Below, one piece after another: positions 8,643 through 60,925 of a stretch of DNA of 64,000 nucleotides. This DNA comes from Eledone cirrhosa (Eukaryota). Each line of letters begins with the position of its first letter. The stretch's first letter is position 1. Location of the stretch: assembly GCA_964016885.1 (NCBI GenBank), contig OZ024745.1, positions 57,970,001 through 58,034,000 on the forward strand. Reading direction: 5' to 3'. The notes under the pieces were generated by a model. The model saw only the letters and a list, made by a program, of their open reading frames with translations, was not told where the DNA came from and did no database searches. The translations under genes and the position numbers were made by a program.

Positions 8643-8875
8643 AATCTAGCTGTCGTCTGTTCTACAGTGTGGATGTCATTCACTTCGCACAGAAGTTTTG
8701 TTCAAATTTATTGAGGAAATTTTGTGAGTTCAAACTTAATTTTGATACAATTGTGTAGCTTGACCCTCCGTCTGAACTGTCAGGCGGTGGGTCAGCTCAT
8801 CTTTACCCCTCCTAGAGGTGAAAAACCTGTTTTAAAAAAAAAATTTGTGTAAAAAATTTCAATCGTCTAACAGAA

Positions 8876-10777
8876 ATGTTAAACGTAGCGAACGAAAATA
8901 GTGGTGGGGGGACAGCGGTAAGAGTTGTAAGCTCGCACGCTTTAGTCCTCCCTTCCTTCCCAACTAACGTCATAGAGAAGGAAGGAAAAATTAAAATAAA
9001 AACAGACGAATCTGCGGAGAAAAAATTAAATGACGAAAACACAAATCTGGACTTGGATTCCAACAACGAAAAAAAAAAATTTGAAAAATTGCATGACAAT
9101 ACTAATAACACAAACAAAGACACAACAAACACAAAAATAACAGTTGAAAATAACACCATATCAGAAAACAAAGCAGACGACAAGATTTCATTTGCACAGA
9201 AAACAAAGAAATCTTTGACTTATATAGCGGAAAACATTTCAGATGTGGTACGAAGGATCACGGACGCCAAACAATGCATAAGTGAAGGAGAGAATGGTAT
9301 TTTATCGGTAAAAATACCTCAAGAATTCACGAAAGACATTGAAAGCCGAACGGTCAAGTTTCGGACCATCAACAACAGTACAAAAAAACCTGAACAGCCT
9401 TCTCAAGCAGACATCAAAACAGTACTCACAGAAGTACTTAATGAAACCACTTTCATAAGAAAAGACAGACTGTATGGAAGCCTAGCAATTATCATGAAGA
9501 ACGAATCGGCGGCAAAAAAATGTGCTTTGTCACCGATTCGTTCGAAAAATTTCACCTTTTATCCATCTTATATGGGGAAAAGAACTCAACGCATATGGCT
9601 GGATGCAATGATGCCAGATGTGGACTACTGCTGGCTCATAGCTGGCTTCATCGATCCAGTGAATGACAACGTGATTTCCATTGGGAAAACCACAGGCAAT
9701 GCGTTCAGTGGAACAGGTATAGAGCTGGTAGTACAAATGAAGCCTGAACGCATCGCCCAAATACCCGACAGAATCCTATTAGAGGACCACGGGTATATAA
9801 ACATTAGCGTGGAGGGGAGAAGGCCGTCCTGCCATATCTGTGCAGGCAGAGGGCACCTGAAGGCCGCTTGTCCCCAACTCAACAAAAAGAAAACCCTGCT
9901 ACCAACACCAGCTCCACCACCACCACCACAACAGATAAACAAACAACAAAACTCAGTCCCACCCAACCCGTCCCTCAGTAAAACCACAACACCACCACAA
10001 CACAAACAGTCACAACACATTACCCCAAAACAAAATACAGGCCCACCCAACCTCTCACTCAATAAAACAACACAACCACCGCAGACACAACACACAACAC
10101 AGTCTAACATAGTGACATCCATCTCCCCCACAAAGAAAACCAGCACGGAAACATTACCAGCAAACATACCTCTTCCCTCCAACACTGAAGATAACCCAAC
10201 GAATTCGGAGGAAGAAACGGAGTCCTTCAGACAGATTAAAAGGAAAAAAAGAAAACATGTGCAAAACACACAAGGACAAACAACCCCCACCCAAATCTCA
10301 ACACAATCCAACAAAACAGAAAACACCCCTCCAGCAACAAACAAAACCAAACCTGCCCCTCCCCTCTTCGAAACACTCACACCATCGGAAAAATAGACAT
10401 TACACTATACTTACATCAACAGAAACAATAATAAATTAAATGAACTCATATACAATAATCCTTCGGTACAAACCGAAGGTGTAAACTTTGTTTCGTCAGA
10501 AAACTACCCACATTTAAAACTAATAAAGATCCCAATGAACCTCTACCAAAAACTAAAAAAGGATTTTAAGGAGGACGTAGGACCACCCTCTGTCAAACCC
10601 ATAAACCGCGTCCTACTAAAAAGCTTTCCCCCTCCCCTTCCCCTCCCCAACACAACTCCAAACACCCCAACCCCACCACACACTGACGACCCCACACCAC
10701 CACAAGACACCCCTTCACCCAACACCCCCGACCCCATGGAAGTCGTGCAACCCGAACCCCGGGAAGCGGAAAGGTAG
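8876..10777 (+). pseudogene. A1 ORF1 (gag-like, one CCHC zinc knuckle) with a single premature stop
   Basis: CHICAGRGHLKAAC = CX2CX4HX4C; TAG at 10394-10396 is AAG in copy A2, and the frame continues to ...PREAER*. Confidence 0.88.
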
Positions 10778-10810
10778 GTCTCTACACTCTCCTTTGGCTC
10801 TGCCGCCCAC

Positions 10811-13800
10811 ATGGATGTGTTAAGAGTAGGATGTTTGAATGCACGTGGCCTGGGCTCAACTTGGAAGCAAGCAAAGCTTCTAAATGACCTCAGGTCATAT
10901 AGTATAAATGTAATGGTTATCTGTGAGACTCGAATCAGCGTCTTGCGGCAGCTGGCCCCCACCTTCGATGACTTTGAGGTGCATGCATCTCTCTGTCAAC
11001 CTGGAGGTGGGGGTGGGGTTGTCGTACTGCTGCAAAAACACCTGGGTCTTGCCGTACAGGTTGTGCACTCGGACCCGGAGGGTCGTTTGTTGGTGCTAGA
11101 CGTTGGCAGTAGTGAAAGTGCGGCCTTGAGACTGGTCGTCGTCTACTCCCCTTTCGGAGCTGAACGGCCCGACTTCTTCCAGCGTTTGGAGACTTTCCTG
11201 GGAACGTCGCGTTCCCTGCTTCTAGCGGGGGATTGGAATGACATCCTGGATGCACGTTGGGACTATGCAGGAGCATGTCCTAATAGAGGGGGGTGTAACA
11301 GCCTCAAGGGGTTACTCGACCGTTTTAACTTGGTCGATAGATATCGACTAGATTTTCCAACTGTGCCTACCTGGACTTGGAGAAACCACAGTGGTCAATC
11401 TAGATCGTACTTAGATAGATTCTTAGTTAGAAGTAAGGATAGGGACATATTAAGCTGTCCAGAAATGCGCACGGTTGGCTACACGGATCACAAATTAGTG
11501 ACCTGCGTGGTCAATCTCGAGAAAACACATAGACAGGGTCCCGGTTACTGGAAACTTAATTTGTCTTTACCGGCAAAAGAGACTTACAGAAACCGGATTA
11601 GCAGATTAGTTAAGGAGAGGTTGACGGGTGCAATCGTCAACAACCGATGGTGGGCATCTCTCAAAAGAGAGATTAGAACAGAATCAATAAGTTATAGCAA
11701 GATGTTAGCTGCCGATAGGAATAGAAACGAGAAAGAATTAACAGGTAAATTAGAAGAGGCAATCAAGAGCGAAGATGTGGCCAGAGTGCTGGCATCGAGG
11801 ACGGCCTTGAACCAGTTTTTCGATGCAAAGCACGAAGGCTGCGTCATTCGAAGTAAAATACGTGCTCTAGGTAATGAGGGGGCCAAAGCCGTTGGATGGG
11901 CCCGCGTGACAGAAGCTAAGAGTGGAAATCGATCCACCATCCGGTCGTTGCAAGACGAAGATGGGCGGGTGATCCGGGAGCCTAAGCAGATGTGCGAGGC
12001 CTTTCAAAGGCACTTTGCCCGATTGTTCGGGGGAGGCGAAGGTCCGGGCGGGGGCGTGGATTTCGGTCCATACCTCGACGGCCTGCCGCGTCTCTCGAAT
12101 GAAGACGCAGAGTCCTGCGAGGGACCAATCTCGGCTGATGAGATCGGAGATGCGCTGAGCCAATGCAGCAGACGCAAATCTCCAGGTCTCGATGGTATAC
12201 CTTACGAACTTTATTTAGCAATGCCGGTCTTCTTCTCCGAACTCCTCGAAGCGGTCTACTTCAATTGGCAGCAGAACGGGAGAATTCCTTGTTCTGTAGC
12301 CAAGGGCGTAGTCACGCTGGTGAGGAAGGACGAGAACAAGGGGGATAGTATAAATAATTTTCGGCCCATAACCCTGCTAAACACAGAGTTAAAGATTTTG
12401 GCCAAGGTGTTAGCAAAGAGGTTGGCGCTTGTCGTGGGTGGCCTGGTGGGAGATGCGCAGACATGTGCTATCCCATCCAGGTCCATTCACGATAACCTCC
12501 ACCTCATGCGATACATCATAGAGAGGGTTGGCAACAAACCCGGCTTCGGTGGGGCCCTGATCAACTTAGATCAGTCTAAGGCCTTCGATAGGGTCGACCA
12601 TGGTTACCTGGATGCGGTGCTAGCGGCGGCTGGGTTCGGTCCTGTTTGCAGAGGCTGGATCACTGCCCTACATAGCAACCACATCTGTTCTAGGATCAAG
12701 GTGAACGGCTACCTTTCGAAGCCGTTCGAAATCACACGATCCATTCGACAGGGGTGCCCTCTCTCCTCCCTTCTGTACGTATTGACTCTCGAGCCTTTAC
12801 TGAGGAAGTTGGAGTTGTTGCAGGGTATACCCCTGGAACCAGGATTGAGCAAAGCGGTGTCGGCCTACGCCGATGACGTAACAGTAATGGTATCAACCGA
12901 CTCGGAGATCGAGGCGATCGGTACCTTACTGGAGGAGTACGAAAGGTTGTCAGGAGCGAAACTGAACCGGGAAAAATCCATCGGGCTGCAACTCGGAACG
13001 TGGAGAGGCAGACCGATGCCTCCTCACGGTGTCGTCGGACACTGGACGGAGGGCCCGGTAAAGTTGCTTGGGGTCTGGTTTGGACCGGACCTCCAGGTGG
13101 AAAAGAACTGGAACGAGGTTACGAAAAAGGTGTTTGCACTAACCCAGAAATGGGACAAGTGTAAGCTGTCCCTAAAAGGCCGGGCGGAGGTGGCGAACAT
13201 TTACATAGCGTCCGTCACTTACTACCGCCTGACTGTCGTGTCTTGCCCTAAGGAAACACTCACCACCATGGAACGCATGCTCTTCCAATTTCTTTGGAAG
13301 AAGCGTCCTCCTATGGTGAGAAGATCCATCTGCTGCCAACAACCTTCGAAAGGAGGGCTGGGGATGCTGTGGTTGATGATGCGTAGGCACGCATTAAGGC
13401 TACGGCACCTACAGGTATTCCTCACTGGTCAACCGGTATGGGCTCCGTTCGTGAAACGAGCCTTTCCGAGACTCGTCTCGCTCACCGAGCTACAGTCCTG
13501 GGTCAAGCAAAGATCTGGAAAACTGGGAGACTGGCACACTGAGTGTGCCCAGGCGCTCAGGGCTCTCTGGCAAGCGGGCCAGGCCATCGGTGGAGAATCC
13601 ACCTCATCATTCTATAGAGGGCTGGTGGCTAGCAGGGGCGATGACACCCTTGGAGAGTCGCTGGACATGGAAGAAGACGAACTGGCCAGCCTGTTCGGTA
13701 GGACTTTCGGCCCAGGACCAATGGACAACTTCCAGAAGTCACTGGCCTGGCAGTGCTTCCGGGGGGCTCTACCCGTTCGAGAGAGGCTCTACAGACACGG

Positions 13801-14248
13801 GCGCCCGGGCAGGGATCCCTCAAAAAAGATTTGCCCTAGATGCGTGCGTCACGAAGAAACCGTTGCGCACGCATTGGTGCAATGTCCGGGCGTGGCTGAT
13901 CTGTGGGGCTACGCCGAACGACTGCTGTCGCGGGTGGCGCCGATTAAATTGACCGCCGAGTCCGTGTTGACAATCAAACCGCCTCCCCTCTTCACAAAGG
14001 AAGCAAAGGCGGTTTTTCTGTGCGTAATAGCCATGTTGAAAGAGGTTGTTTGGTGGACACGATTGAAAGGTCTGAGGTCAGGCAACTTCCTCTCTGGCCA
14101 TAATCTGGTCTACTTCTTCCGATATCACTTCGGAAGAAGGATAAGAATGGAGAGAGAGGTGCTTGGCCACAGGCAGTTTTATGAAAGGTGGGTGATAGTG
14201 GCGAGAATGGCTCGTGTAAATGGGCCTTCTCTGTATACCATCCTGTAG
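10811..14248 (+). CDS. A1 ORF2: APE endonuclease, reverse transcriptase and C-terminal CCHC zinc finger (1145 aa, intact)
   Basis: CET, GDWN, SYLDRF and TDH (APE); KSPGLDG, FRPITLLN, LDQSKAFDRV, QGCPLS and YADD (RT); CPRC..ETVAHALVQC. Confidence 0.97.
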   Translation: MDVLRVGCLNARGLGSTWKQAKLLNDLRSYSINVMVICETRISVLRQLAPTFDDFEVHASLCQPGGGGGVVVLLQKHLGLAVQVVHSDPEGRLLVLDVGSSESAALRLVVVYSPFGAERPDFFQRLETFLGTSRSLLLAGDWNDILDARWDYAGACPNRGGCNSLKGLLDRFNLVDRYRLDFPTVPTWTWRNHSGQSRSYLDRFLVRSKDRDILSCPEMRTVGYTDHKLVTCVVNLEKTHRQGPGYWKLNLSLPAKETYRNRISRLVKERLTGAIVNNRWWASLKREIRTESISYSKMLAADRNRNEKELTGKLEEAIKSEDVARVLASRTALNQFFDAKHEGCVIRSKIRALGNEGAKAVGWARVTEAKSGNRSTIRSLQDEDGRVIREPKQMCEAFQRHFARLFGGGEGPGGGVDFGPYLDGLPRLSNEDAESCEGPISADEIGDALSQCSRRKSPGLDGIPYELYLAMPVFFSELLEAVYFNWQQNGRIPCSVAKGVVTLVRKDENKGDSINNFRPITLLNTELKILAKVLAKRLALVVGGLVGDAQTCAIPSRSIHDNLHLMRYIIERVGNKPGFGGALINLDQSKAFDRVDHGYLDAVLAAAGFGPVCRGWITALHSNHICSRIKVNGYLSKPFEITRSIRQGCPLSSLLYVLTLEPLLRKLELLQGIPLEPGLSKAVSAYADDVTVMVSTDSEIEAIGTLLEEYERLSGAKLNREKSIGLQLGTWRGRPMPPHGVVGHWTEGPVKLLGVWFGPDLQVEKNWNEVTKKVFALTQKWDKCKLSLKGRAEVANIYIASVTYYRLTVVSCPKETLTTMERMLFQFLWKKRPPMVRRSICCQQPSKGGLGMLWLMMRRHALRLRHLQVFLTGQPVWAPFVKRAFPRLVSLTELQSWVKQRSGKLGDWHTECAQALRALWQAGQAIGGESTSSFYRGLVASRGDDTLGESLDMEEDELASLFGRTFGPGPMDNFQKSLAWQCFRGALPVRERLYRHGRPGRDPSKKICPRCVRHEETVAHALVQCPGVADLWGYAERLLSRVAPIKLTAESVLTIKPPPLFTKEAKAVFLCVIAMLKEVVWWTRLKGLRSGNFLSGHNLVYFFRYHFGRRIRMEREVLGHRQFYERWVIVARMARVNGPSLYTIL

Positions 14249-14462
14249 GTAAAGAAGTAAAGGAGAGGGGAGCATCTTCTCCATGTGCCCCCCGGGCAAA
14301 GGATTGCACACTTTTTCGGGGGTGTGTGCAACCCCCATCACGTCCCCTCCCTTTTGAGGTTATTTTCGATTATTTTCATGTTACACCCTTTTTACTCGAT
14401 TATATGTAAACTCCCCCTTTGTATTTGTCCCTTCTTTTTATGCCTTTATGGTAAATAAAGAA

Positions 14463-14497
<35 letters not shown>

Positions 14498-14715: not shown

Positions 14716-16635
14716 ATGAACGCTGCGTCCAACGATAATGGTGGTGGAGAGGCGGTAAGACTACAAAGCTCGCAGTCAACAACGTCTTCTTCACTAGATA
14801 CTATAGAGATGGAAAGACGAAATGAAAATGTAAAAACGAATTCATATTCAAACAACACAAATGACACCAAACAATTCAATGACAACAAAAATAACAGCAA
14901 CACCAATAATGATGATAAAAGCAACAATGATAACAACAACAAAGAAAAAAATAAAGACAACACCAATAACACCAGCATCAAAGACAACAACAACACCAAG
15001 GAAAATACGGATAATACCAACATCGGTGACAACAAGAATAACAACAACAATAACAACAATAATGACAACACCACCAATACGGATTCCACAAAGAAATCAA
15101 AAATCTCCTTTGCAGAGAAAGTTCAAAAAAAGGAAGAATTGATATATCTAGACATAACAAATTCTGAACAACTTTTAAAGGACGCTAGGAGATATGTCAC
15201 TTTCGATAAAAATTGTGCTTTCATCATCAATTCTCCGGTAGAAATTCGCAAGGAAACTGCTCCCAAAACGATAGTTTTTAGGACAGTTTCCAATTCTACC
15301 CGAAAACCAGTCCAATTGTCACAGAAAGAAATTGGGCTGGTTTTCAAAAATTCAATGAATGATATTGCATTCATTCAAAGAAGCAAACTTTTTGGGAGTA
15401 TTTCGGTACCCATGAAGGATCAATTGACGGCCCAAAATTACTCTTACTCTGTGTCGCCAATTGTATCCAACCTGTACACCTTTTTCCCTACATACATGGG
15501 AAAAAGGACACAAAAGATCAGAATCACGAGTGTCACACCAAAGGTGAACATATGGTGGGTACTGTGCGGCTTCATCAATTTTGATGAAGACAGTATACTG
15601 TCAGTAGGCAAGTCCCCCAGAGATGTATTCAATAGGACTAGCATTGAAGTTCTGGTGCAAATGAGCCCAGAGCGAATAGCTATGATCCCACAGTGTGTAC
15701 TCCTGGACGGACTCACCTACATAAACTTTTCAGTTGAGGGTAGGCGGCCTTCATGTTACCATTGCTTTAGCAGCGGTCACCTGAGGGCTTCCTGTCCTAA
15801 ATTAATGAACCAAAAAAAGGCTCTTTGCCGACACCCATCAAAACGACACAACCACCAACACCACCACAACAACAACACCAACACACAAAAATAACAATCA
15901 ACAAACACAGTCCCACCCGACCCCACTCCACCTAAAACTACTGCAAAATCACATACAGACACAATAGTTCCTCAAGACATACCCCTCCCCAATCACACAG
16001 ACGATACAACAGATGAGGCTATCTCGCCATCACCCAGTGAAGACGAGGGAGAACCCCATCGTTCGAAAAGAAAGAAAAGACATCACAAAAACAAAAAACC
16101 AGCAAACACTACCACAAACATACAACCACCAACACAAACAACAAAAACATCACAAACAAAACCCCCACCTCCTGAAAACAAAATACCTACAACAAAACGA
16201 AAGCACACACAAGAACTACGGACAAAAACAAACACAACACAATAAAATTACACTTACACTTACATAAACACTGAAAACAAAACACTAATGGAGACCATCA
16301 CGAACGACCCTTCGGTGAAAACCGAGGGGAAAACTTTCGCCCACTCCATTAAAAATAGCAAAAATCTGAACCTAAAACTGATTAGGGTCCCTATACAAAC
16401 TTATAGGTCCCTAAAAGAAACATTTGAGAAGGATGTGGGGAATTCCTGCGTGAAACCACTCAACCGCGTCCTTCTCAAATGTCTCCCCACCCCAGACACC
16501 CCCATCCCACCAGACCCCACCCCACCAAACATCTGCGTCCCCACCCCGCCGGAAACCACCACCCATCCAGACAACCCCTCCAACACCCCCATGGAAATCG
16601 TGCGGCCTGGTCCCCAGGAGACGAAGGGTGAGTGA
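14716..16635 (+). pseudogene. B1 ORF1 (zinc knuckle protein), frameshifted with a stop
   Basis: CYHCFSSGHLRASC; colinear with the intact 638-aa ORF at 56023-57939. Confidence 0.88.
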
Positions 16636-16668
16636 TCTCTTTTCCTCTTTTAATTTTTCAGCACCAAC

Positions 16669-19600
16669 ATGGCCAATATAAGAGTTGGATGTGTGAACGT
16701 ACGCGGCCTGGGGATGCCCTGGAAACAGGGCAAACTCTTAAACGACCTCAGGTCGCAAAGTATGGATGTGGTAGCCATTTGCGAGTCCAGGATCCACGGC
16801 GAGCGACAGCTGGCCCCCATCTTCGATGACTTTGAGATCTATGCATCTCTCTGTCAACCGGGGGGTGGGGGCGGAGTTGCCGTTTTGCTGCGGACACCTG
16901 GTCCTCGTAACACAGACGGTACATCTGGACCCGGAGGGTCGACTGGTGGTCCTAGACGTTGACGGTAGTGAAGGTGGAGCCTTCAGGCTGGTGGCCGCAT
17001 ATGCCCCATCCGGGACACCGCGGCCAGACTTCTTCAAACGTCTAGAGAATTTTCTGGGAATGTCCCGCTCCTTGCTTTTAGAGGGGGACTGGAATGGAAT
17101 CCTAGATGCACGTTGGGACTATGTGGGAGCATGTCCCGATAAAGGGGGGTGTAACAGCCTCAAACAGTTAATCGACCGATTTGACCTGGCCGATAGATAT
17201 CGACTAGATTTTCCGACTGCGCCACTGTGGTAGTGGAGTAATCGTAGCGGAACATTTAGATCGTACCTAGATAGGGTTCTAGTTAGAAATAAGGATACGG
17301 ACATATTAAGCTATCCACAAATGTTCATGTTTGCCTATTCAGATCACAAACTAGTGACCTGCATGGCCAACCTTGATAGAACCCATAGAGAAGGATCCGG
17401 ATACTGGAAGCTGAACTTGTCGTTACCGACAAGCAAAGCCTACAGTAGACGGATTAGCACTTTAGTTAAACAGCACTTGACAGGGGCCATTGTCAACAAC
17501 AGATGGTGGTACTCTCTCAAGAGGGCAGTTAGATTAGACTCGATAGTTTTTAGTAAAGAATTAGCGTTAGATAGAAATAGAACCGAGAAGGAACTGGTAG
17601 ATAAAGTAGAAGAGGCAATTAGAAGTGGCAACGTAGCCAGCGTGCTAGCAACGAGATCGGCCTTGGACCAGTTCTTCGACGCAAAGCACGAGGGCTGCGT
17701 TGTCAGAAGTAAAATACGTGCTCTGGGAAACGAGGGAGCCAAAGCTGTTAGCTGGGCCCGAATTACGGAGGCAAAAAGTGGCAACAAGTCCACGATTCGG
17801 TCTTTGAAGGACCAAAACGGACGCGTGATACGTGAGCCGAAGCAGATGTGTGCGGCTTTTCAGCGGCACTTTGCTCAGCTGTTCGGGGGGGGGGGGGCAG
17901 GGAGAGGCTATGGATTTCGGTCCATACTTCGACGGCCTACCGCGACTCTCGGACAGCGAGGCAAAGTTCTGCGAAAAGCCGATTTCAGCCACTGAGATAG
18001 GGGACGCGCTGAGCCAATGCGGCAAACATAAATTTCCAGGTCTAGACGGTCTACCCTACGAATTTTACGTAGCAATGCCGGACTTAATCTCCGGTCTCCT
18101 GGAAGCGGTCTACTGCAAATGGCAACAGAACGCGAGAATTTCCAGTTCTGTAACCGGGGGCGTGGTCACACTAATCAGGAAGGACGAGAATAAGGGGGAT
18201 GACATAGGCAACTTCCGGCCCATAACTCTGCTAAACACAGAGTTATAGATTTTGGCCAAGGTGTTGGCAAAGAGGCTGGCGCTTTATGTCGAGAACCTAG
18301 TGGGAGAAGCGCAGACATGCGCGATCCCGACCAGGTCCATACACGACAACCTCCACCTCATGCGATACATCATAGAGAGGATAGGGTGTAAACCCGGCTT
18401 CGGTGGGGCCCTGATCAACTTGGATCAGTCTAAGGCTTTCGATAGGGTTGACCATCGTTACCTGGATGCGGTGCTCGAGGCGGCAGGCTTCGGACCCGTG
18501 TTCAGGGGCTGGATTGCTGCAATGCACAACAGCAACATCTGCTCAAGGGTCAAGGTGAACGGTTACCTCTCGGAGCCGTTCCATATTACGCGATCCATTC
18601 GACAGGGATGCCTTCTCTCCTCCCTTCTGCACGTACTGACTCTCGAACCACTACTGCGGAAGCTGGAGCTATTGCAGGGAATCCCTCTGGAACCGGGACT
18701 GCGGAAAGCGGCGTCGGCCTACGCCGACGACGTTACAGTAATGGTGTCGAGCGCCTCGCAAATCGAGGAAGTCGGCACCTTACTGAAGGAATACGAAAGT
18801 CTCACAGGAGCGAAGCTGAACCGGGACAAGTCCATCGGTTTGCAACTCGGATCGTAGAGAGGCAGACCGATGCCTTCCGATGGCGTCGTCGGACGCTGGA
18901 CGGAAGGACCGGTAAAGCTGCTCGGGGTCTGGTTTGGTCCGGACCTCCAAGTGGAGAAGAACTGGAACGAAGTGACGGCCAAGGTGTTTGCACTCACCCA
19001 GAAGTGGGCCGAGTGCAAACTATCCTTGAAAGATCGAGCGGAGGTGGCGAACACTTTTATAGCGTCCGCCATCTACTACCGCTTGACCGTCGTGCCTTGT
19101 CCAGCCAAAACGCTCGCCAAAATGGAGCGCGCGCTATTCCGATTCCTTTGGAAGAGGCGGGCTCCTTTGGTGAGAAGATCCATCTGCTGCCAATACCCTT
19201 CTAACGGAGGGCTGGGGATGCCGTGGTTGACGATGCGCAAACACGCCCTCAGGCTGCGGCATCTCTACGTATTCCTCACCGGACAACCGGTGTGGGCCCC
19301 GTTCGTGAAGCGAGCCTTCCCACGACTCGTCTCGCTGACCGAGCTGCAGTCCTGGGTCAAGCAGAGACCGAGGAAAATGGGCGACTGGCACATCGAATGT
19401 GCTCAGGCACACACAGCCCTCTGGCAGGCGGACCCGGCGATCAGTGGAGACTCCACTTCGTCATTCTATAGAGGGTTGGTCCGCAGCAAGTGCGACGACG
19501 CGCTCAGTGAAACTCTAGGCGTAGAGGAAGATGAACTGGCCAGTCTGTTCGGTAGGACCTTCCGCCCGGGACCGATGGACAATTTCCAAAAGTCCCTGGC

Positions 19601-20102
19601 CTGGCAGTGCTACCGAGGAGCTCTACCAGTTCGAGACAAGCTCTACAGGCATGGGCGCCCGGGCAGGGACCCTGCAAAAAAGATCTGTCCGAGGTGCGTG
19701 CGAGACGAAGAAACCGTCGCGCACGCATTCATACACTGCCCGGGCGTCACTGACCTGTGGGGCTATGTAAAACGACTATTGTCGCGGGTGGGACCAATCC
19801 AGTTGACCACCGAATCCATTGTCATGATCAAACCGCCACCCTCCTTCAAAAACGAAGGAGAGGCGGTTTTCTTTTGTGTGATAGCTATGGCGAAAGAGGT
19901 TGTATGGTGGACAAGGTTGAAAGGGCTGAGGTCAGACACCTTTCTCTCCGGCCAACAACTGATTCTTTTTTTTAAATACCACTTTGGAAGAAGAATCAGG
20001 ATGGAGAGAGGGGTGCTGTACCCCAGCAAGTTTTATGAAAGGTGGGTGAAAGTGGCGAGAATGGCCCGAGTGAATGGGCCTTCTCTCTATATCAGCCTGT
20101 AG
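16669..20102 (+). pseudogene. B1 ORF2 (APE-RT-ZnF), multiple stops and frameshifts
   Basis: Consecutive ORF fragments carry GDWN, SDH, FRPITLLN, YADD and CPRC. Confidence 0.93.
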
Positions 20103-20726
20103 GTTGAGGAAAAGGAGGAGGAGAGGAAAGGAGTACAAGCTCTTCGTACTCCTGGAGATGAGGGTTGCACATTTTTTTTCGGGGGTATGTGTTACCCATA
20201 TAAACTGTCTCCCTCTATTGGGGAAAATCGACTAACTTTTAAATTCCATCTGTAATAACATTTTACACGTTTTTATTGTATGTAAACTTCCCCCTTTGTA
20301 TTTGTCCCCTTCTTTTGTGCCCCTGTGGCTAATAAAGAAATATATCTATCTATCTATCTTTGTGTCTGACGCGTGGAACATCGCCGGTAAGCTTTTTTGT
20401 TAATTTCTATACAAAAAACCGAACTAATTGTTTGAAAAAACATAACATTTTGTAGATTAGCCCCCCCCAAGCTGAATTGTCAGCTGGGTGGTAATCCCAT
20501 CTTTCGCCCCGATAGGGCCGAAAATTTTATTTAAAAAATTTGTTTTAAAATATCAGATTTTACAAACTAAATAACTTGAGCAACACAAGCACGCTGGAGA
20601 ACGTTAATAGAGAAAAGAGAGAGAAAGAGGCAGATATTAACGTTATATCTGCTTTTGCTACTATGGACGTCGCCATAGATACCACTGTCAACAAAGAAAA
20701 AAAAATTACCACTTGAAGATTTAAAA

Positions 20727-22408
20727 ATGTCTACCGTCGAAGGAGAAAATAACAATAACACACAAGAAAACACAGGAATTAAACCCTTTAAAATACATAC
20801 ACATGAAAAAGACATCAACAACTCTACAGATACATCTACACATAATGTTTCACCTCGACAAGGAACTGAGATTTCCAAGACCGAGGCTAACAACGATAAC
20901 AACAACAACAGCAACACCACAGAAAAAAAAGAAAATGTCTTTCGCTGAAACAGTGGACAAAAAACAAGATTTTATAAATCTTGATATCTCCAACGCAAGA
21001 GATATGCTCCAGCAAGGGAGAAAATGTGTAACTTTCGAAGAAAGAGGTGTGTTTAGAATTAACTCACCCCTTGAAATAAAGGAAGACACAATTCGCAGAT
21101 CAGTCACCTTTAGGACTGTGTCAAATTCCACAAGAAAGCCGACATTTGTTAACCAAGCAGATATAGAAGATACTTTCAAGGAAATTCTAGCAAATGTCGA
21201 TTTTCGCCAGCGAGGAAAAGAGTACGGAAGTGTTTAAAAGCGAGGCACTCGCCCAAAAACACCCTGTGACACCAATGGTGTCAAAAGCATACACCTTCTT
21301 CCCTACATAGATGGGAAAAAGGACACAAAAAATAAAAATAAAAAACAAACCTCCAAACATTAACATCTGGTGGATCTTGGCTGGCTTCGTAGAGCCAGAA
21401 ACTGATATGATTCTTTCGATACGAAAATCTATTCGACAAAGGTGGGCGGGTACAGATTTGGAGATTATGTTGCAAATGAAACCGGAGAGAATCTCCAAAA
21501 TACCCGAAAGAGTCGTTATCGATAATAACAACAAAATAAACATTTCGGTAGAAGGACGAAAATTTCATTGCTTTCGATGTGGTAGCACAGCACACCTAAA
21601 AACCTCTTGTCCACAAACACACAACAACAACATCATTAAAAAAACATTATTACCAACACCAAAACAACCAGCACCACCACAAGTACAACGACAGACGAAA
21701 CGAGGAACCACACCAAAACAAACAGACACTCAACCAACAACAACAGAAAAAACAGAGACAGCACCCCTGAAGAACACAGCCCCACTCCATCCCACTCCAT
21801 CAAACACTACCACAAACACAGACACTGAACGATGATTATTCATCGACGGATGAAGCTGCTTCTCCTTCTTTAAGTGAAGAAGAGGGAGAACCGCGGAAAT
21901 CTAAAAAATAAAACAAGAGACACCACAAAACCCCCAAAACTCCAATCACCAATACCAACACACAACCACAGACACAAACAACAACACAAACAACACCACA
22001 GTCAAACATCCCCCTATCAGCAAAACCAGCACCAACACCACCCAAACACAAGCACCCACCATAAAAAGAAAACTCAAGTACGAACAACAAACTAAAACAA
22101 CACAGCAAAAACACAAACAACAATACGCATGCATCAACACAAACAACAAGAGTTTGATGGAGGTCATCTCCCAAAACCCGAAGGTGGAGACGGAGGCAAA
22201 ACTTTCGTCAAGGCAGAATCGTCTCCACATATTAAAATTATAAGGGTTTCTATAATGACCTAAAAAATAAATTTTCACAGGATGTGGGCAACCCCTACCA
22301 CAAACCCATCAACCGCGTCCTGTTAAAACGTTTCCCCACCCCACCCAACACCCATCCAGCACCCAAATGGAGATTGAACAACCCGATTTCCAGGAAACGA
22401 AAAGGTAA
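20727..22408 (+). pseudogene. C ORF1 remnants (start uncertain)
   Basis: SFAETV, FRTVSNSTRKP, MGKRTQKI, CFRCGSTAHLKTSC, KPINRVLLK and MEIEQPDFQETKR* are homologous to A/B ORF1. Confidence 0.8.
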
Positions 22409-22449
22409 GTGCACCTTTCGTCCTTTTTCTCCAACTTTTCTTCACCAAC

Positions 22450-25400
22450 ATGGCTAGTTTACGAGTTGGAACCGTGAATGTACGTGGCCTAGGGATGCCC
22501 TGGAAATAGGGCCAACTTTTAAACAACCTTAGGTCACGCAGTTTGGATGTGATAGCCATCACCGAGTCCAGGATCCACAACAGGCAGCAACTAACCCCCA
22601 TCTTCGACGACTTTGAGATCTACGCATCTCTCTGTCAGCCAGGAGGTGGAGGTGGAGTGGCTGTCATGTTTCGGAAGAACCTGGACGTAGAAGTACAGTA
22701 AGTACACTTGGACCCGGAGGGTAGACTGGTAGTCCTAGACGTGAACATATTGGAGGTGGAGCCTTCAGACTGGTGGCCGTTTATGCCCCGACCGGGCAAT
22801 CGCAATCACGGCCAGACGTCTTTAAGCGTCTAGAGTCTTTTCTGGGAACGTCTCGTTCCTTACTTTTAGTGGGGGACTGGAATGGTATCCTAGATGCACG
22901 ATGGGACTATGTGGGAGCATGTCCCAGTAGAGCGGGGTGCAACAGCCTCAAAACTTTAATCGGCCAATTCCAACTGGCCAATAGGTATCGACTGGATTTC
23001 CCCACTGCACCACATTGGACGTGGGCAAACCGCAGTGGGACATCTAGATCGTATTTAGATAGGTTCTTCATTAGAGAAAGGGACAAGGAGATGTTAAGCT
23101 GTCCACGATTGAACATGGTTGCCTATTCAGATCACAAGTTAGTCGTCTGCTTAGTCAACCGTGATAGAATACATAGACAGGGTCCCGGATACTGGAAGCT
23201 GAACGTGTCGTTGCCGGCACGTAAAGCTTACAGTGAACGGATAAGTAGACTAGTCAAGCAACAGTTAACGGGAGCCATCGTCAACAATAGATGGTGGTAC
23301 TCTCTCAAGAAAGGAATTAGAATAGAATTGATAGGGTATAGCAGAGAGTTAGTCTTAGAGAAAAACAGAATAGAAAGAGAACTTGTTGCCAAGGTAGAGG
23401 AGTCACTTAGAAGTGGCAACGCGGCTAGAGTGTTAGCGTCGAGAACGGCACTGGACCAGTTCTTCGATGCGAAACACGAAGGTTGCGTGGTCAGAAGCAA
23501 AACAGGTGCTCTAGGAAACGAAGGAGCGAAAGCTGTCAGCTGGGCCCGAGTAGCGGAGGCAAAAAGTAGCAACAAGTCCACAATTCGGTCTTCGAAAGAC
23601 CAAAACGGACGCGTGCTACTTGACCCCAAGCAAATGTGCGCGGCCTTTCAGCGGCACTTTGCGCGACTGTTTGGACGGAACGACGGTGAGCCGAACGAGG
23701 CAATGGAGGTTAGTTCATACCTCGACGGCCTGCCGCGTCTCTCAAACACGGACGCCGAGTTCTGCGAAAGACCGATCACGGACACTAAGATACGGGACGC
23801 TCTGGGCCGCTGCGGGAAACGCAAGTCACCCGGTCTAGATGGTCTACCCTACGGGTTTTACATAGGCATGCCGGACTTCTTCTCTGGCATCTTCGAAGCC
23901 GTCTACTGCAATTGGCAGCAGAACGGGAGAATTCATAGTTCTGCAGGTAAGGGCGTAGTAACGCTGATCAGGAAAGACGAGAACAAGGGGGACGAAATTA
24001 ACAACTTCAGGCCCATAACTCTGTTCAACAGGAATTAAAGATTTTGGCCAAGGTTCTAGCGACGAGGTTGGCGCTTGTCGTCGAGAACCTGGTAGGGAAA
24101 GCGCAAACGTGTGCAATCCCGACCAGCTCCATACACGACAACCTCCACCTCATGCGATACATCATAGAGAGGGTGGGTAGTAAACCCGGCCTCGGTGGGG
24201 ATCTGATCAACTTGGATCAGTCTAAGGCATTCGATAGGGTCGACCATCTATACTTGGAAGCGGTTCTCAAGGCGGCCGGTTTCGGTCCCGTGTTCAGAGG
24301 ATGGATCGAGGCGATGCACACCAGCATCTGCTCGAGGGTCAAGGTGAACGGCTAGGGGTCCCCTCTCTCCTCCATTCTGTATTATTGACTCTAGAGCCAC
24401 TACTGTGGAAATTGGAGCTGTTGCAGGGCATCCCTCTAGAACCGGGACTGCGCACAGCGGCGTCGGCTTATGCCGACGACATGACGGTAATTGTGTCGAG
24501 CACCTCGGAAATCGGGGTGATCGGCGACTTACTGAAAGAATACGAAACGCTGACGGGAGCAAAACTAAACCCGAACAAGTCTGTCGGTTTGCAATTCGGT
24601 ACGTGGAGAGGCAAACCGATGACGTCCGACAGCGTCGTTGGACGCTGGACGGACGGACCTGTGAAATTACTCGGGGTTTGGTTCGCTCCAGACCCCCAGG
24701 TGGAGAAAAACTGGAACAAGGTCACGGCCAAGGTGTTTGCACTCACCCAGAAGTGGGCAGAGTGCAAACTGTCCTTAAAAGGTCGAGCGGAGGTGGCGAA
24801 CACTTTCATAGCGTCCGTCATCTACTACCGCTTGACTGTCGTGCTTTGTCCCCGTTAACACCTCGCCAAGATGGAACGCATGAAGTCCTGGGTCAAGAAA
24901 AGACCAAAAACGATGGGCGCCTGGCACATTGAATGCGCTCAGGCGCTCACAGTCCTCTGGCAAGCGGGCGCTGCAATCAGTGGAGACTCCACTTCGACAT
25001 TCTCTAGACGGATTGTACGTTACAAGGGCGACGACAATTTCCAGAGGCCCCTGGCCTGGCAGTGCTACCGAGGAGCTCTACCGGTTCGTGACAAGATCTA
25101 CAGGCAGGAATCCTTCCAAGAGGACGTATCCAAGATGCGCGGAGAACATTGAAACAGTCCTGCACGCAATTGTACACTGCCCGGGCGTAACTGACCTGTG
25201 GAACTATGCAGAACAACTGCTGTCGCGTATGGGACAAATCCAGTTGACTGCCGAGTCCATAGTAAGGATCAAACCGCCAGCCTCTTTCAAAACCGAAAGA
25301 GAGGCGGTTTTCCTCTGTACGGTAGCTATGGTGAAAGAAGTTATATGGTGGACTGGGTTGAGAGAACTGAGGACATATGCCTTTCTCTCCGGACAACAAT

Positions 25401-25543
25401 TGATTCCCTTCTTTAAGTATCGCTTTAGAAGGAGAATCAAGGTGGCGAGAGAGGCACTGCACCCCATTAAATTTACTGAAAGGTGGGTGAATGAAGCAAA
25501 AATGGCCCGAGTGATTGGGCCTTCTCTGTTTACAAGCCTGTAG
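22450..25543 (+). pseudogene. C ORF2 (APE-RT-ZnF) with stops, frameshifts and internal deletions
   Basis: GDWN, SDH, KSPGLDG, YADD, terminal GPSLFTSL*. Confidence 0.9.
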
Positions 25544-25778
25544 GTTGAGGAAGAGAGCAAAAGGAAGAAAGGAGCACTTGTACAACACGCTCCTGGAGTT
25601 GAGGGTTGTTCTATCGACGGGGTATTAAACACCCATTTGTGGCGCCTCCCCCCTATTGGGGATTTCGATTGTTGAAATTGTTTGTTTTTATATTTTTTAC
25701 ACAGCTGTATGTAAAATCCCCAGCATGTCTTTGTATTGTCCCTTTTTCTTGTACGCCCTGGTGGCTAATAAAGAAATA

Positions 25779-26069: not shown

Positions 26070-27976
26070 ATGTTAAACGCAGCGAACGAAAATAGTGGTG
26101 GGGGGACAGCGGTAAGAGTTGTAAGCTCGCACGCTTTAGTCCCCCCTTCCTTCCCAACTAACGTCATAGAGAAGGAAGGAAAAATTAAAATAAAAACAGA
26201 CGAATCTGCGGAGAAAAAAAATGACGAAAACACAAATCTGGACATGGATTCCAACAACGAGAAAAAAAAATTTGAAAAATTGCATGACAATACTAATAAC
26301 ACAAACAAAGACACAACAAACACAAAAATAACATTTGAAAATAACACCATAACAGAAAGCAAAGCAGACGACAAGATTTCATTTGCACAGAAAACAAAGA
26401 AATCTTTGACTTATATACCGGAAAATATTTCAGATGTGGCACGAAGAATCACAGACGCCAAACAATACATAAGTGAAGGAGAGAATGGTATTTTATCGGT
26501 AAAAATGCCTCAAGAATTCACCAAAGACATTGAAAGCCGAACGGTCAAGTTTCGGACCATCAACAACAGTACAAAAAAACCTGAACAGCCTTCTCAAGCA
26601 GATATCAAAACAGTACTCACAGAAGTATTTAATGAAACCACTTTCATAAGAAAAGACAGACTGTATGGAAGCCTAGCAACTATCATGAAGAACGAATCGG
26701 CGGCAAAAAAATGTGCTTTGTCACCGATTCGTTCGAAAAATTTTACCTTTTATCCATCTAAATATGGGTAAAAGAACTCAACGCATATGGCTGGATGCAA
26801 TGATGCCAGATGTGGACTACTGCTGGCTCATAGCTGGCTTCATCGATCCAGTGAATGACAACGTGATTTCCATTGGGAAAACCACAGGCAATGCGTTCAG
26901 TGGAACAGGTATAGAGCTGGTAGTGCAAATGAAGCCTGAACGCATCGCCCAAATACCCGACAGAATCCTATTAGAGGACCACGGGTATATAAAGCGTGTA
27001 TATATTAGCGTGGAGGGGAGAAGGCCGTCCTGCCATATCTGTGCAGGCAGAGGGCACCTGAAGGCCGCTTGTCCCCAACTCAACAAAAAGAAAACCCTGC
27101 TACCAACACCAGCTCCACCACCACCACCACAACATAAACAAACAACAAAACTCAGTCCCACCCAACCCGTCCCTCAGTAAAACCACACCACCACCACAAC
27201 AAAAACAGTCACAACACATTACCCCAAAACAAAATACAGGCCCACCCAACCTCTCACTCAATAAAACAACACAACAACCGCAGACACAACACACAACACA
27301 GTCTAACATAGTGACATCCATCTCCCCCACAAAGAAAACCAACACGGAAACATTACCAGCAAACATACCTCTTCCCTCCAACAATGAAGATGACCCAACG
27401 AATTCGGAGGAAGAAACGGAGTCCTTCAGACAGATTAAAAGGAAAAGAAGAAAACATGTGCAAAACACACAAGGCCAAACAACCCCCACCCAAATCTCAA
27501 CACAATCCAACAAAACAGAAAACACCCCTCCAGCAACAAACAAAACCAAACCTGCCCCTCCCCTCTTCGAAACACTCACACCATCCGAAAAAAAGACATT
27601 ACACTATACTTACATAAATAGAAACAATAATAAATTAAATGAACTCATATACAATAATCCTTCGGTACAAACCGAAGGTGTAAACTTTGTTTCTTCAGAA
27701 AACTACCCACATTTAAAATTAATAAAGATCCCAATGAACCTCTACCAAAAACTAAAAAAGGATTTTAAGGAGGACGTAGGACCACCCTCTGTCAAACCCA
27801 TAAACCGCGTCCTACTAAAAAGCTTTCCCCCTCCCCTTCCCCTCCCCAACACAACTCCAAACACCCCAACCCCACCACACACTGACGACCCCACACCACC
27901 ACAAGACACCCCTTCACCCAACATACCCGACCCCATGGAAGTCGTGCAACCCGAACCCCGGGAAGCGGAAAGGTAG
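26070..27976 (+). pseudogene. A2 ORF1, frameshifted
   Basis: Three ORF pieces colinear with A1 ORF1. Confidence 0.88.
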
Positions 27977-28009
27977 GTCTCTACACTCTCCTTTGTCACT
28001 GCCGCCCAC

Positions 28010-30877
28010 ATGGATGTGTTAAGAGTAGGATGTTTGTATGCACGTGGCCTGGGCTCAACTTGGAAGCAAGCAAAGCTTCTAAATGACCTCAGGTCATGTA
28101 GTATAAATGTAATGGTTATCTGTGAGACTCGAATCAGCGGCGTGCGGCAGCTAGCCCCCACCTTCGATGACTTTGAGGTGCATGCATCTCTCTGTCAACC
28201 TGGAGGTGGAGGTGGGGTTGTCTTACTGCTGCAAAAACACCTGGGTCTTGCCGTACAGGTTGTGCACTCGGACCCGGAGGGACGTTTGTTGGTGCTAGAC
28301 GTTGGCAGTAGTGAAAGTGCGGCCTTGAGACTGGTCGCCGTCTACACCCCTTTCGGAGCTAAACGGCCCGACTCCTTCCAGAGTTTGGAGACTTTTCTGG
28401 GAACGTCGCGTTCCCTGCTTCTAGCGGGGGATTGGAATGACATCCTAGATGCACGTTGGGACTATGCAGGAGCATGTCCTAATAGAGGGGGGTGTAACAG
28501 CCTCAAGGGGTTACTCGACCGTTTTAACTTGGTCGATAGATATCGACTAGATTTTCCAACTGTGCCTACCTGGACTTGGAGAAACCACAGTGGTCAATCT
28601 AGATCGTACTTAGATAGATTCTTAGTTAGAAGTAAGGATAGGGACATATTTAGCTGTCCAGAAATGCGCACGGTTGGCTACACGGTCCACAAATTAGTGA
28701 CCTGCGTAGTCAATCTCGAGAAAACACATAAACAGGGTCCCGGTTACTGGAAACTTAATTTGTCTTTACCGGCAAAAGAGACTTACAGAAAACGGATTAG
28801 CAGATTAGTTAAGGAGAGGTTGACGGTATACCTTACGAACTTTATTTAGCAATGCCGGTCTTCTTCTCCGAACTCCTCGAAGCGGTCTGCTGTAATTGGC
28901 AGCAGAACGGGAGAATTCCTTGTTCTGTAGCCAAGGGCGTAGTCACGCTGGTGAGGAAGGACGAGAACAAGGGGGATAGTATAAATAATTTTCGGCCCAT
29001 AACCCTGCTAAACACAGAGTTAAAGATTTTGGCCAAGGTGTTAGCAAAGAGGTTGGCGCTTGTCGTGGGTGGCCTGGTGGGAGATGCGCAGACATGTGCT
29101 ATCCCATCCAGGTCCATTCACGATAACCTCCACCTCATGCGATACATCATAGAGAGGGTTGGCAACAAACCCGGCTTCGGTGGGGCCCTGATCAACTTGG
29201 ATCAGTCTAAGGCCTTCGATAGGGTCGACCATGGTTACCTGGATGCGGTGCTAGCGGCGGCTGGGTTCGGTCCTGTTTTCAGAGGCTGGATCACTGCCTT
29301 ACATAGCAACCACATCTGTTCTAGGATCAAGGTGAACGGCTACCCTTCGAAGCCGTTCGAAATCACACGATCCATTCGACAGGGGTGCCCTCTCTCCTCC
29401 CTTCTGTACGTATTGACTCTCGAGCCTTTACTGAGGAAGTTGGAGTTGTTGCAGGGTATCCCCCTGGAACCAGGATTGAGCAAAGCGGTGTCGGCCTACG
29501 CCGATGACGTAACAGTAATGGTATCGACCGACTCGGAGATCGAGGCGATCGGTACCTTACTGGAGGAGTACGAAAGGTTGTCAGGACGAAACTGAACCGG
29601 GAAAAATCCATCGCGCTGCAACTCGGAACGTGGAGAGGCAGACCGATGCCTCCTCACGGTGTCGTCGGACACTGGACGGAGGGCCCGGTAAAGTTGCTTG
29701 GGTCTGGTTTGGACCGGACCTCCAGGTGGAAAAGAACTGGAACGAGGTTACGAACAAGGTATTTGCACTAACCCAGAAATGGGCCAAGTGTAAGCTGTCC
29801 CTAAAAGACCGGGTGGAGGTGGCGAACATTTACATAGCGTCCGTCACTTACTACCGCCTGACTGTCGTGCCTTGCCCTAAGGAAACACTCACCACCATGG
29901 AACGCATGCTCTTCCAATTTCCTTGGAAGAAGCGCCCTCCTATGGTGAGAAGATCCATCTGCTGCCAACAACCTTCGAAAGGAGGGCTGGGGATGCCGTG
30001 GTTGATGATGCGTAGGCACGCATTAAGGCTACGGCACCTACAGGTATTCCTCACTGGTCAACCGGTGTGGGCTCCGTTCGTGAAACGAGCCTTTCCGAGA
30101 CTCGTCTCGCTCACCGAGCTACACTCCTGGGTCAAGCAAAGATCCGGAAAACTGGGAGACTGGCACAATGAGTGTGCTCAGGCGCTCAGGGCTCTCTGGC
30201 AAGCGGGCCAGGCCATCGGTGGAGAATCCACCTCATCATTCTATAGAGGGCTGGTGGCTAGCAGGGGCGATGACACCCTTGGAGAGTCGCTGGACATGGA
30301 AGAAGACGAACTGGCCAGCCTGTTCGGTAGGACTTTCGGCCCAGGACCAATGGACAACTTCCAGAAGTCACTGGCCTGGCAGTGCTACCGGGGGGCTCTA
30401 CCCGTTCGAGAGAGGCTCTACAGACACGGGCGCCCGGGCAGGGATCCCTCAAAAAAGATTTGCCCTAGATGCGTGCGTCACGAAGAAACCGTTGCGCACG
30501 CATTGGTGCAATGTCCGGGCGTGGCTGATCTGTGGGGCTACGCCGAACGACTGCTGTTGCGGGTGGCGCCGATTAAATTGACCGCCGAGTCCGTGATGAC
30601 AATCAAACCGCCTCCCCTCTTCACAAAGGAAGCAAAGGCGGTTTTTCTGTGCGTAATAGCCATGTTGAAAGAGGTTGTTTGGTGGACACGATTGAAAGGT
30701 CTGAGGTCAGGCAACTTCCTCTCTGGCCATAGTCTGGTCTACTTCTTCCGATATCACTTCGGAAGAAGGATAAGAATGGAGAGAGAGGTGCTTGGCCACA
30801 GGCAGTTTTATGAAAGGTGGGTGATAGTGGCGAGAATGGCTCATGTAAATGAGCCTTCTCTGTATACCATCCTGTAG
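28010..30877 (+). pseudogene. A2 ORF2, deleted and frameshifted
   Basis: 279-, 247- and 415-aa pieces match A1 ORF2. Confidence 0.92.
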
Positions 30878-31110
30878 GTAAAGAAGTAAAGGAGAGGGGA
30901 GCACCTTCTCCATGTGCTCCCCGGGCAAAGGATTGCACACTTTTTCGGGGGTGTGTACAACCCCCATCACGTCCTCTCCCTTTTGAGGTTATTTTCGATT
31001 ATTTTCATGTCACACCCTTTTTACTCGATTATATGTAAACTCCCCCTTTGTATTTGTCCCTTCTTTTTATGCCTTTATGGTAAATAAAGAAATATATCTA
31101 TCTATCTATA

Positions 31111-51681: not shown

Positions 51682-52551
51682 ATACTAGAAAGATAAAATG
51701 AATCAAAATCTGAACCAAAATCTTTGTTTTGATTTTATCTCTAACATTGCCTACTGATCTATCGATTGATTACAAACCGCTGTTTGATTAATCTAACTGT
51801 TTATTTATTACTGTCTTTAAGTCACATGGTCGGGATTGATGTGTAGCAACAGCAACAGTAGTAGTAGTAGTAGTGTTTTTGTATTGTTGTTCTTGGTGGG
51901 GTCAAGAAAGAGGTCAGCTCTGATCCAAGAGTTCTACGAGTAAAAATACATTGTATGCAGAATCTTTTCGCGGATATCAAAGAATACTTTCCCTTATATA
52001 TTTTTTTCTCTTTTATTCGAATGATGGGGGTGTATTGAAGAGAGATTGTTACTTCTAACTGCCTAAATAATTGTTTCTACGTACGGGGTGCTCAGTACAA
52101 CAAGTAATATTTGGAATTTTTGTTGTTGTCGTTATTGGTGATATGACGAATTTCCAATTAAAATATACAATTTTATACCTTTGTTATGTGATCAGTAGAG
52201 AGCTGTTCTGGAAAGTGTCAATAGTATCGTGGTATAGTTACTTTCCATTTATCCCTGAGTGTTTGTATATACGCGATAGAGTTAGGGATGAATAGATAGA
52301 TAGATAGATATATTTCTTTATTAGCCACAAGGGCAAACAAGAAGGGGACAAATACAAAGAGGGAAGTTTACATACAATAAAACGTGTAAAATGTTATCAC
52401 AAATGGAATTTAAAAAGTTAGTCGATTTTCCCCAATAGGGGGAGACAGTTTATATGGGTAACACATACCCCTGAAAAACAAATGTGCAACCCTCATCTCC
52501 AGGAGTACGAAGAGTTTGTACTCATTTCCTCTCCTCCTCCTTTTCTTCAAC

Positions 52552-55989: not shown

Positions 55990-56022
55990 GTTGGTGCTGA
56001 AAAGTTAAAAGAGGAAAAGAGA

Positions 56023-58199: not shown

Positions 58200-58200
58200 T

Positions 58201-58270
<70 letters not shown>

Positions 58271-58272
58271 TG

Positions 58273-60884: not shown

Positions 60885-60891
60885 GATAGAG

Positions 60892-60925
<34 letters not shown>

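Follow-up and report, generated by a model that had tools for sequence, protein, structure and literature searches.

Introduction

In retrotransposons of the long interspersed nuclear element (LINE) type, the stability of the bicistronic RNA, the production of the first open reading frame (ORF) product, ORF1p, at levels far above those of ORF2p, and cis preference are all long-standing questions. Members of the Tx1 clade such as Kibi and Koshi are described as targeting (TC)n and (TTC)n repeats (PMC4494074), while in human L1, spliced retrocopies named SpIREs are reported for 131 of 6,609 full-length elements, or approximately 2% (PMC5860796), and a form named SpORF2 is also described (PMC2896524). 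Outside of the LINEs, U1 at the donor of the EVD element is reported to block premature termination (PMC5580714), folding of the poly(A) tail near a stop codon is reported to suppress nonsense-mediated decay (NMD) (PMC2689704), and PTBP1 bound near a stop codon is reported to protect retroviral RNA (PMC4764554). The subject of the present work is a stretch of 64,000 nucleotides from the 3.0-Gb genome of Eledone cirrhosa (assembly GCA_964016885.1, contig OZ024745.1, forward-strand positions 57,970,001 to 58,034,000; hereafter the window, whose own numbering is used throughout), in which related two-ORF retrotransposons lie head to tail at 8.6-31.2 kb on the plus strand and 52.3-64 kb on the minus strand, with (CTAT)n between copies. 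The reference copy, a full-length Tx1-like LINE of family A (8644..14462, +), consists of a 5'UTR (untranslated region), ORF1 (8876..10777), a short spacer, ORF2 (10811..14248) and a 3'UTR, followed by AATAAA and a (CTAT)n tail or target (14454..14496).

An earlier, sequence-only reading of this locus had proposed that ORF2 lies inside an intron bounded by the two stop codons, whose removal would generate an ORF1-only mRNA alongside an unspliced genomic RNA. The analysis reported here indicates that, in a clade with thousands of copies, an invariant U1-type site is accompanied by a predicted, covarying helix that links the ORF1 stop and ORF2 start to the ORF2 stop and 3'UTR. The element appears to be a new member of a known group, with an RNA architecture that appears undescribed.

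A 5' splice-site motif at the end of ORF1

The donor-like motifs to which the sequence-only reading had pointed are present: AG|GTAGGT at 10774 in family A (AAG|GTAGGT, 10771..10779, +, overlapping the ORF1 stop), GG|GTGAGT at 16628 and at 56030 (-) in family B, and AG|GTAAGT at 22405 in family C. Two further donors were found in the window, at 27973 in a second A copy and at 58794 (-) in an internally deleted B derivative, and independent confirmation comes from family D, where AG|GTAAGT stands at the ORF1 stop beyond the window (L031). For comparison across the genome, 40 copies were picked to span motif variants among the first 100 matches, together with 20 loci of a sister family, Z, which was reached via a chimeric copy and then a pattern search. 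From these, 18 representatives (16 plus two of Z) were retained, leaving out redundant copies, five in which the end of ORF2 could not be seen, the chimeric L068, and also L084 with its mutated donor and L064, L088 and L098 with variant ends.

Conservation of the donor across families, which had been put forward as a check of the proposal, holds well: G|GTRRGT ends ORF1 in 28 of the 30 loci found by the ORF2-start pattern and in 39 of 40 longer loci (overlapping sets), as well as in 18 of 20 loci of family Z. The motif is kept in phase 2 in most families, in phase 1 in B and the F group, and in phase 0 in G, and in combination with all three stop codons or none; four of the ORF1 proteins are only 27-50% identical to that of A, and their C-termini align poorly. 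By a simple consensus score, no GT outscores the donor in any of the 18 representatives (276-334 GT sites per element, with ties in 6), so that in each the best GT site corresponds to the consensus 5' splice site of a U2-type intron. Donor positions G-1, G+1, T+2, G+5 and T+6 are unchanged in all 18, whereas their helix partners (see below) and the remaining helix vary; across 12 representatives, only 27 of 164 fourfold-degenerate ORF2 sites (16.5%) are invariant. Since the motif is kept in all phases and is the best GT in 18 of 18, against so few invariant fourfold sites, it is more than a product of chance, and this comparison indicates that the donor is under selection at the nucleotide level. 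The motif is conserved in a form to which U1 would be expected to bind. In 12 of the 18 representatives ORF1 contains a poly(A) hexamer, A[AT]TAAA, at a distance of 250-385 nt before the donor. No donor stands at the ORF1 stop in two distant Tx1-like metagenome elements.

It was also observed that two ORF1 homologs (P0044 and P0046, one from Argonauta) end in GK* or GKS*, which fits a phase-1 G|GTAAGT donor; these ends are known from protein only and are not used as evidence, and a recognisable spliced tail was seen in none of the octopod ORF1s recovered.

A predicted helix that spans ORF2

Alignment of the junctions across families revealed a feature absent from the earlier reading: in 18 of 18 representatives, the pyrimidines of the ORF1-ORF2 spacer are complementary to a purine tract after the ORF2 stop, with a predicted duplex of 26-44 bp. 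The helix would join the spacer with the 40 nt that directly follow the stop codon of ORF2 and would loop out exactly ORF2. In family A the 5' strand, with donor, pyrimidine spacer and ORF2 start context, covers 10768..10812 (+), and the 3' strand, with ORF2 stop, purine tract and partial anti-donor, covers 14244..14282 (+); at -34.8 kcal/mol (z -1.7) this is among the weakest families. The B helix pairs 16622..16670, which includes the phase-1 donor, with 20098..20146, around the ORF2 stop at 20102 (+; -44.2 kcal/mol, z -4.8), and the C helix pairs 22399..22451 with 25539..25582, around the stop at 25543 and including the anti-donor GCACTTG (+; -42.8 kcal/mol, z -5.4). Corresponding strands occur in the second A copy (27967..28011 and 30873..30912, stop at 30877, +) and in the second B copy (55988..56036 and 52508..52556, stop at 52552, -; -41.2 kcal/mol, z -5.0).

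A single register is found in all families, consisting of ACA:UGU, an A-A mismatch, CC:GG and A:U, with 14-15 of 15 representatives agreeing per paired position (the count excludes G and Z, in which the top part of the helix is absent). The ACA that leads up to and includes the ORF2 start pairs with the UGU before the stop, and in F2 and F3 A-U is replaced by G-C through changes on both sides; the middle of the helix is family-specific in sequence. The anti-donor likewise tracks the donor, with ACCTAC for GTAGGT in E, ACTCAC for GTGAGT in B2 and CACTTG for GTAAGTG in C and Z. Donor positions +1 to +6 are fully paired in 5 of the 18 representatives; four others pair 4-5 of these nucleotides, and the remaining nine pair 2-3.

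Several comparisons indicate that this complementarity is specific. Among approximately 570 windows, the start of the 3'UTR is the best partner of the spacer within its own element in 14 of 18 representatives, and ranks 5-7 in the other four; cognate duplexes reach z values of -1.8 to -6.6 against dinucleotide-shuffled UTRs. Across 12 representatives, cognate pairs surpass non-cognate ones by 7.3 kcal/mol after row and column correction, a value reached in 0 of 100,000 permutations (p<1e-5, which overstates independence because the families are related and kinship is not modelled). With loop cost left aside, the helix is 10-30 kcal/mol more stable than local folds, and in minimum free energy folds of the whole region it forms in three of the four elements tested (C, F2 and Z2), but not in A. 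In 15 of 18 representatives pairing is stronger on the sense strand than on the antisense, a weak sign given that sense-strand sequence was used to define the windows. For most families, no significant local hairpin surrounds the donor (z +1.1 to -3.3), nor is there a significant correlation between spacer length and purine-tract length (rho 0.42, p 0.08), and the two distant Tx1-like elements show no helix (z 0.1 and 1.1). Complementarity and covariation are thus features of the sequences themselves, and the helix is predicted to fold in cells.

In family A, a local 3'UTR hairpin of the GGAGCAC..GTGCTCC type (14267..14292, +), which covaries across families, competes with the base of the helix. 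In the window (14267-14345) and in homologous 3'UTRs, two or three hairpins follow one another, and their stems show compensatory changes between families; they constitute a candidate ORF2p recognition element.

The acceptor-like site and the predicted join

At the other end of the proposed intron, CTGTAG|G was confirmed at 14248, 20102, 25543, 30877, 52552 (-) and 61188 (-); in A, the acceptor-like site, made of pyrimidine-rich codons and TAG|G, covers 14229..14249 (+). The acceptor is the weaker of the two sites. TAG|G ends ORF2 in 32 of the 35 copies with that end in view (the exceptions being L064, L088 and the chimeric L068), but family Z ends in TAA, and so lacks the acceptor-like AG while keeping donor and helix. 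The rank of the site also depends on the scoring: among approximately 260 AGs it stands at 1-3, with ties, in 15 of 16 representatives by pyrimidine count, but anywhere from 1 to 38 when scoring is T-weighted. The absence of an obvious branch point, already conceded in the earlier reading, extends to the families as a whole, in that yUnAy-type 5-mers lie 18-40 nt upstream in only 6 of the 16 non-Z representatives, and no branch point is conserved. Within the helix, CTGTAG|GT is complementary to the ORF2 start context, and the two are altered jointly in Z; the conservation of the acceptor letters is therefore fully accounted for by this pairing. Family Z, alone among the families, carries a T-tract with CAG, ACACGCAG, in its 3'UTR approximately 160 nt downstream, which is top-ranked in T-weighted scoring and exact in 56 of 62 matches (overlapping loci).

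Joining the two sites had been noted to provide a stop in A and B. This is the case within three codons in 9 of 16 matched phases versus 8 of 32 unmatched ones (p 0.036, uncorrected for kinship), with all five phase-shifted representatives among the nine, whereas in the other 7 of 16 tails of 7-79 codons would be appended; GT followed by purines makes stops readily. For family A, the join does provide a new stop after the same ORF1 codons; the reference copy has a premature ORF1 stop at 10394-10396.

The search for spliced products

If an ORF1-only RNA had been retrotransposed, copies lacking exactly the interval between the two sites should be present in the genome. None was found, with family G left unsearched, as compared with 8,338 donor-intact junctions (3,847 + 4,491). 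The exact A and B junction patterns gave no genome match. A general ORF1-end pattern continued into the donor in 3,847 cases and into other sequence in 16, a count that would miss joins of family H and some alternative acceptors; none of the 16 is spliced, and each is explained by a point change, a short indel, a duplication, a deletion or, in one case, an insertion. Family Z gave 4,491 donor matches and 26 others (14 by chance), none spliced, and in family F, for which the total was not counted, the one non-donor match is a mutated donor and not a spliced copy. Assembled contigs from four runs of unrecorded kind were also compared with positions 8645-25775: among the 15 joints listed of 557 none runs from donor to stop, and X1 and X5 each have a single contig that continues without a break through the A acceptor, contigs being able to show presence and not absence.

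Spliced retrocopies of L1 keep ORF2 (PMC5860796), such that cis preference may hide an ORF2-less RNA here. The internally deleted B derivative (58200..60893, -), which holds ORF1, the donor at 58794 and scraps of ORF2, and whose first breakpoint is not GT..AG, could serve as a control for mobilisation in trans; it is present in five copies (L174-L178), all inside 25 kb and three of them spaced by 2,726 bp. As it has spread only locally and has lost most of its 3'UTR, it is only a partial control. No dispersed ORF2-less copy was found in the genome.

Other joins were considered and rejected. Locus L165 connects the end of a C ORF1 to a point approximately 130 nt into ORF2, one base off GT..AG, and was treated as a deletion. 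A micro-intron that begins at the donor and ends at an AG close to the start of ORF2 would measure 34-50 nt, but the AG is not conserved and the phases are inconsistent, and a readthrough fusion of ORF1 and ORF2 was dismissed because the two frames do not stand in a fixed relation from family to family. For a splice to the ORF2 stop there is no support so far. What stands of the proposed ORF1-only mRNA is selection on the donor and a layout that would yield an intact ORF1 message.

Interpretation

The explanation favoured here, tentatively, is a two-part RNA device in which a U1-type site and a fold-back helix keep the RNA full-length; it is, in each of its functional steps, a proposal. U1 would sit on the donor during transcription of ORF2 and guard the transcript from early 3'-end formation. 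The 3'UTR, once made, would zip onto the spacer, covering the acceptor-like site and, partly or fully, the donor, which would leave the RNA largely unspliced, with ORF1-to-3'UTR splicing being slight or absent. The fold would also bring the ORF1 stop to a spatial distance of approximately 230 nt from the poly(A) signal, much as the removal of ORF2 by splicing would do, and could thus provide protection from NMD, while burial of the ORF2 start context would lower ORF2 output. Both the retention of donor and helix in family Z, although its acceptor AG is absent, and the lack of any spliced retrocopy among those searched for are in line with such a device. A number of points weigh against it. Real splicing would be the simplest reason for a perfect donor to have been kept over such a time; the lack of retrocopies may reflect cis preference, the ORF2-less derivative being undispersed as well; and the canonical T-tract CAG in the 3'UTR of Z could be a replacement acceptor. 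The helix itself is a prediction from sequence, weakest in A and E (z -1.8 and -2.0) and not formed in the full fold of A; masking of the donor is often partial, since full pairing occurs in only 5 of 18, and kinship among the families tempers the permutation result.

According to a second explanation, ORF2 is a facultative intron of approximately 3.47 kb, splicing turns a functionally important share of transcripts into ORF1-only mRNA, and the ratio of spliced to unspliced RNA is set by the helix, which covers both splice sites. That a whole reverse transcriptase ORF should be a facultative intron, with the choice left to a helix that the element itself encodes, that spans 3.4 kb and covers both sites, and that carries a U1-mimicking anti-donor, is plausible, though less likely than the first explanation. 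It would readily account for a donor kept in three phases across ORF1s 27-50% identical to that of A, and it has a parallel in Drosophila copia, described as removing an intron of approximately 3 kb that covers all of POL (PMC5580714); human L1 splicing, on the other hand, is reported to be detrimental and mostly evaded (PMC5860796). The high rank of the stop-site AG by pyrimidine count (1-3 in 15 of 16) is offset by its range of 1-38 in T-weighted scoring, by the lack of a conserved branch point and by the fact that pairing explains the acceptor letters, and the greater share of early stops after the join in matched phases (9 of 16) than in unmatched ones (8 of 32) by the tails of 7-79 codons in the other seven representatives. 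Family Z, without the AG, does offer the downstream T-tract. Against 8,338 donor-intact junctions, no spliced retrocopy was found in the families searched, even though the junction would lie only approximately 200 nt from the 3' end.

A third explanation, which is unlikely, takes the helix as a purely translational or ribonucleoprotein-assembly device, the donor-like appearance arising from stop codon and pairing constraints. The helix could control reinitiation at ORF2, or a ribosome finishing ORF2 could open it and expose the 3'UTR hairpin in cis only. Such a role would suit a helix whose closing point coincides with the ORF2 start context and the stop codon and whose base competes with a covarying 3'UTR hairpin; the lack of any dispersed ORF2-less copy in the genome would also fit, as would family G, which has no ORF2 ATG and yet several copies. 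It does not explain, however, why G-1, G+1, T+2, G+5 and T+6 of the donor are invariant in 18 representatives while their partners change, nor why the motif persists where the stop has moved off it, as in F, G and B.

It is very improbable that the motifs and the complementarity simply follow from codon use and from tracts rich in T or in purines, or from shared ancestry. Pyrimidine and purine tracts do pair easily (mean non-cognate duplex -29 kcal/mol), and the families share one ancestor, but covariation appears to refute this reading largely, being family-specific and in constant register; the best-in-element rank and the invariance of the donor, as against 16.5% of fourfold sites, also speak against it, and two distant elements have neither feature. 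Complementary flanks around one ORF are the known geometry of circular RNA formation, and back-splicing of ORF2 into a circle, in which the AG|GT behind the ORF2 stop would act as donor and the spacer would supply the pyrimidine tract, would fit that geometry as well as TAG|GTAGGT in F and TTTTCAG just before the ATG in the B group, but it is the least credible of all, as most families have no AG before the ATG, F2 and F3 have GC in place of GT, and both sites would be buried in the helix.

The elements, their families and their arrays

ORF2 of family A, whose frame is open and which forms the loop closed by the predicted helix, encodes an AP (apurinic/apyrimidinic) endonuclease, a reverse transcriptase and a C-terminal zinc finger. 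PF03372 and PF00078 score above cutoff, PF13966 reaches 27.1 bits against a cutoff of 27.5, and the best PDB match is L1 ORF2p (E 1e-49). A CCHC knuckle is present in the A ORF1, and its form CX2CX4HX4C in four of four intact ORF1s. The closest named homologs are from Argonauta and Octopus; a word-index search with ORF1 found no homolog, and a profile search then gave octopod ORF1s, while a scan of viral contigs found no relative. Among 29 A loci, 8 are 5'-truncated in view, and 7 of these 8 adjoin a TCTA-containing simple repeat (3 of them clear (CTAT)n), as expected for a microsatellite-targeting Tx1-like element. Domains, CCHC ORF1 and simple-repeat target together suggest that the elements are Tx1-like LINEs. 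In a protein tree obtained by a quick, unfinished search, built only from relatives outside the Tx1 reference families, with open root and a U2-inserted element as a long-branch outgroup, three subclades were recovered, namely F, Z with an Argonauta protein and P0003, and the rest, which suggests that donor and helix date from their common ancestor.

The clade is young and abundant. The 3'UTR of family A has 966 genomic candidates, with at least 40 at 99-100% identity (40 scored), and the genome holds 6,263 matches to the ORF2-start pattern and 4,286 to the family-Z motif. Arrays often mix families in units of 5.7-6.1 kb (8644-31226 and 52292-64000 in the window, and many G000 loci), and growth apparently occurs by elements inserting into one another's tails. 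The window also contains the 3' part of a family D element (60922..64000, -; ORF2 stop at 61188), with its donor approximately 650 bp past the window end.

Several side observations concern individual families. Tails differ among close relatives, being (CTAT)n in A, B, C, D, E, G and H, (CTGT)n in D3 and (ATT)n in F and Z (L062-L101, L132-L151), and provide a natural series for the study of change in endonuclease target specificity. In family G, ORF2 is without ATG and its frame opens at an ATA overlapping the ORF1 TAG in 8 of 8 loci (L045, L047, L058, L059, L075-L078, some being the same copy), which suggests AUG-independent initiation or a non-autonomous family. Finally, tandem minisatellites with periods of approximately 63 bp and 30 bp were detected by self-comparison of the window at 50749-51684 and 49882-50545.

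Comparison with described systems

A search of full-text literature, to which Repbase and most subscription journals are external, found no ORF2-spanning intron or helix in a LINE, nor a natural covarying fold-back over a whole LINE ORF. With the Tx1-clade elements Kibi and Koshi, as far as these are described in the source cited above, the E. cirrhosa elements share two ORFs, AP endonuclease, reverse transcriptase, C-terminal zinc finger, CCHC ORF1 and insertion into simple repeats; they differ in their (CTAT)n, (CTGT)n or (ATT)n tails and in their head-to-tail arrays of units of approximately 5.8-6.1 kb. The two distant Tx1-like metagenome elements, one of which is U2-inserted, have neither the donor nor the ORF2-spanning helix. 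In the U2-inserted one (L152:5815-5977), the poly(A) tail was observed to adjoin a U2 snRNA gene (Rfam RF00004), a Keno-like insertion.

Human L1 also has splice sites inside a LINE, but its introns, as described, remove the 5'UTR or ORF1, not ORF2, and are detrimental, and unlike the case of the SpIREs, no spliced retrocopy was found here. The proposed fold-back resembles the pairing by which, in experiments in human cells, poly(A) is brought near an upstream stop with suppression of NMD (PMC2689704). Should the RNA remain unspliced, the element would represent a natural "structural intron". Host splicing, too, could be influenced by the presence of more than 8,300 perfect donors in a single genome.

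The long terminal repeat (LTR) elements provide the closest parallels for the donor. Arabidopsis Ty1/Copia EVD has a conserved donor at which U1 is described as allowing a short RNA and blocking premature termination of the full-length one; it differs in having a short intron coupled to early polyadenylation, and the account given there describes no long-range anti-donor (PMC5580714). Drosophila copia is closer in layout, with a donor that ends the structural ORF and an intron of approximately 3 kb over the whole enzyme region (PMC5580714), but it belongs to the LTR elements, its Gag acts in trans and its splice is demonstrated, whereas the element described here is a non-LTR LINE with both sites in one predicted helix. 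If its RNA is spliced after all, it would bring the subgenomic strategy of copia to a non-LTR element.

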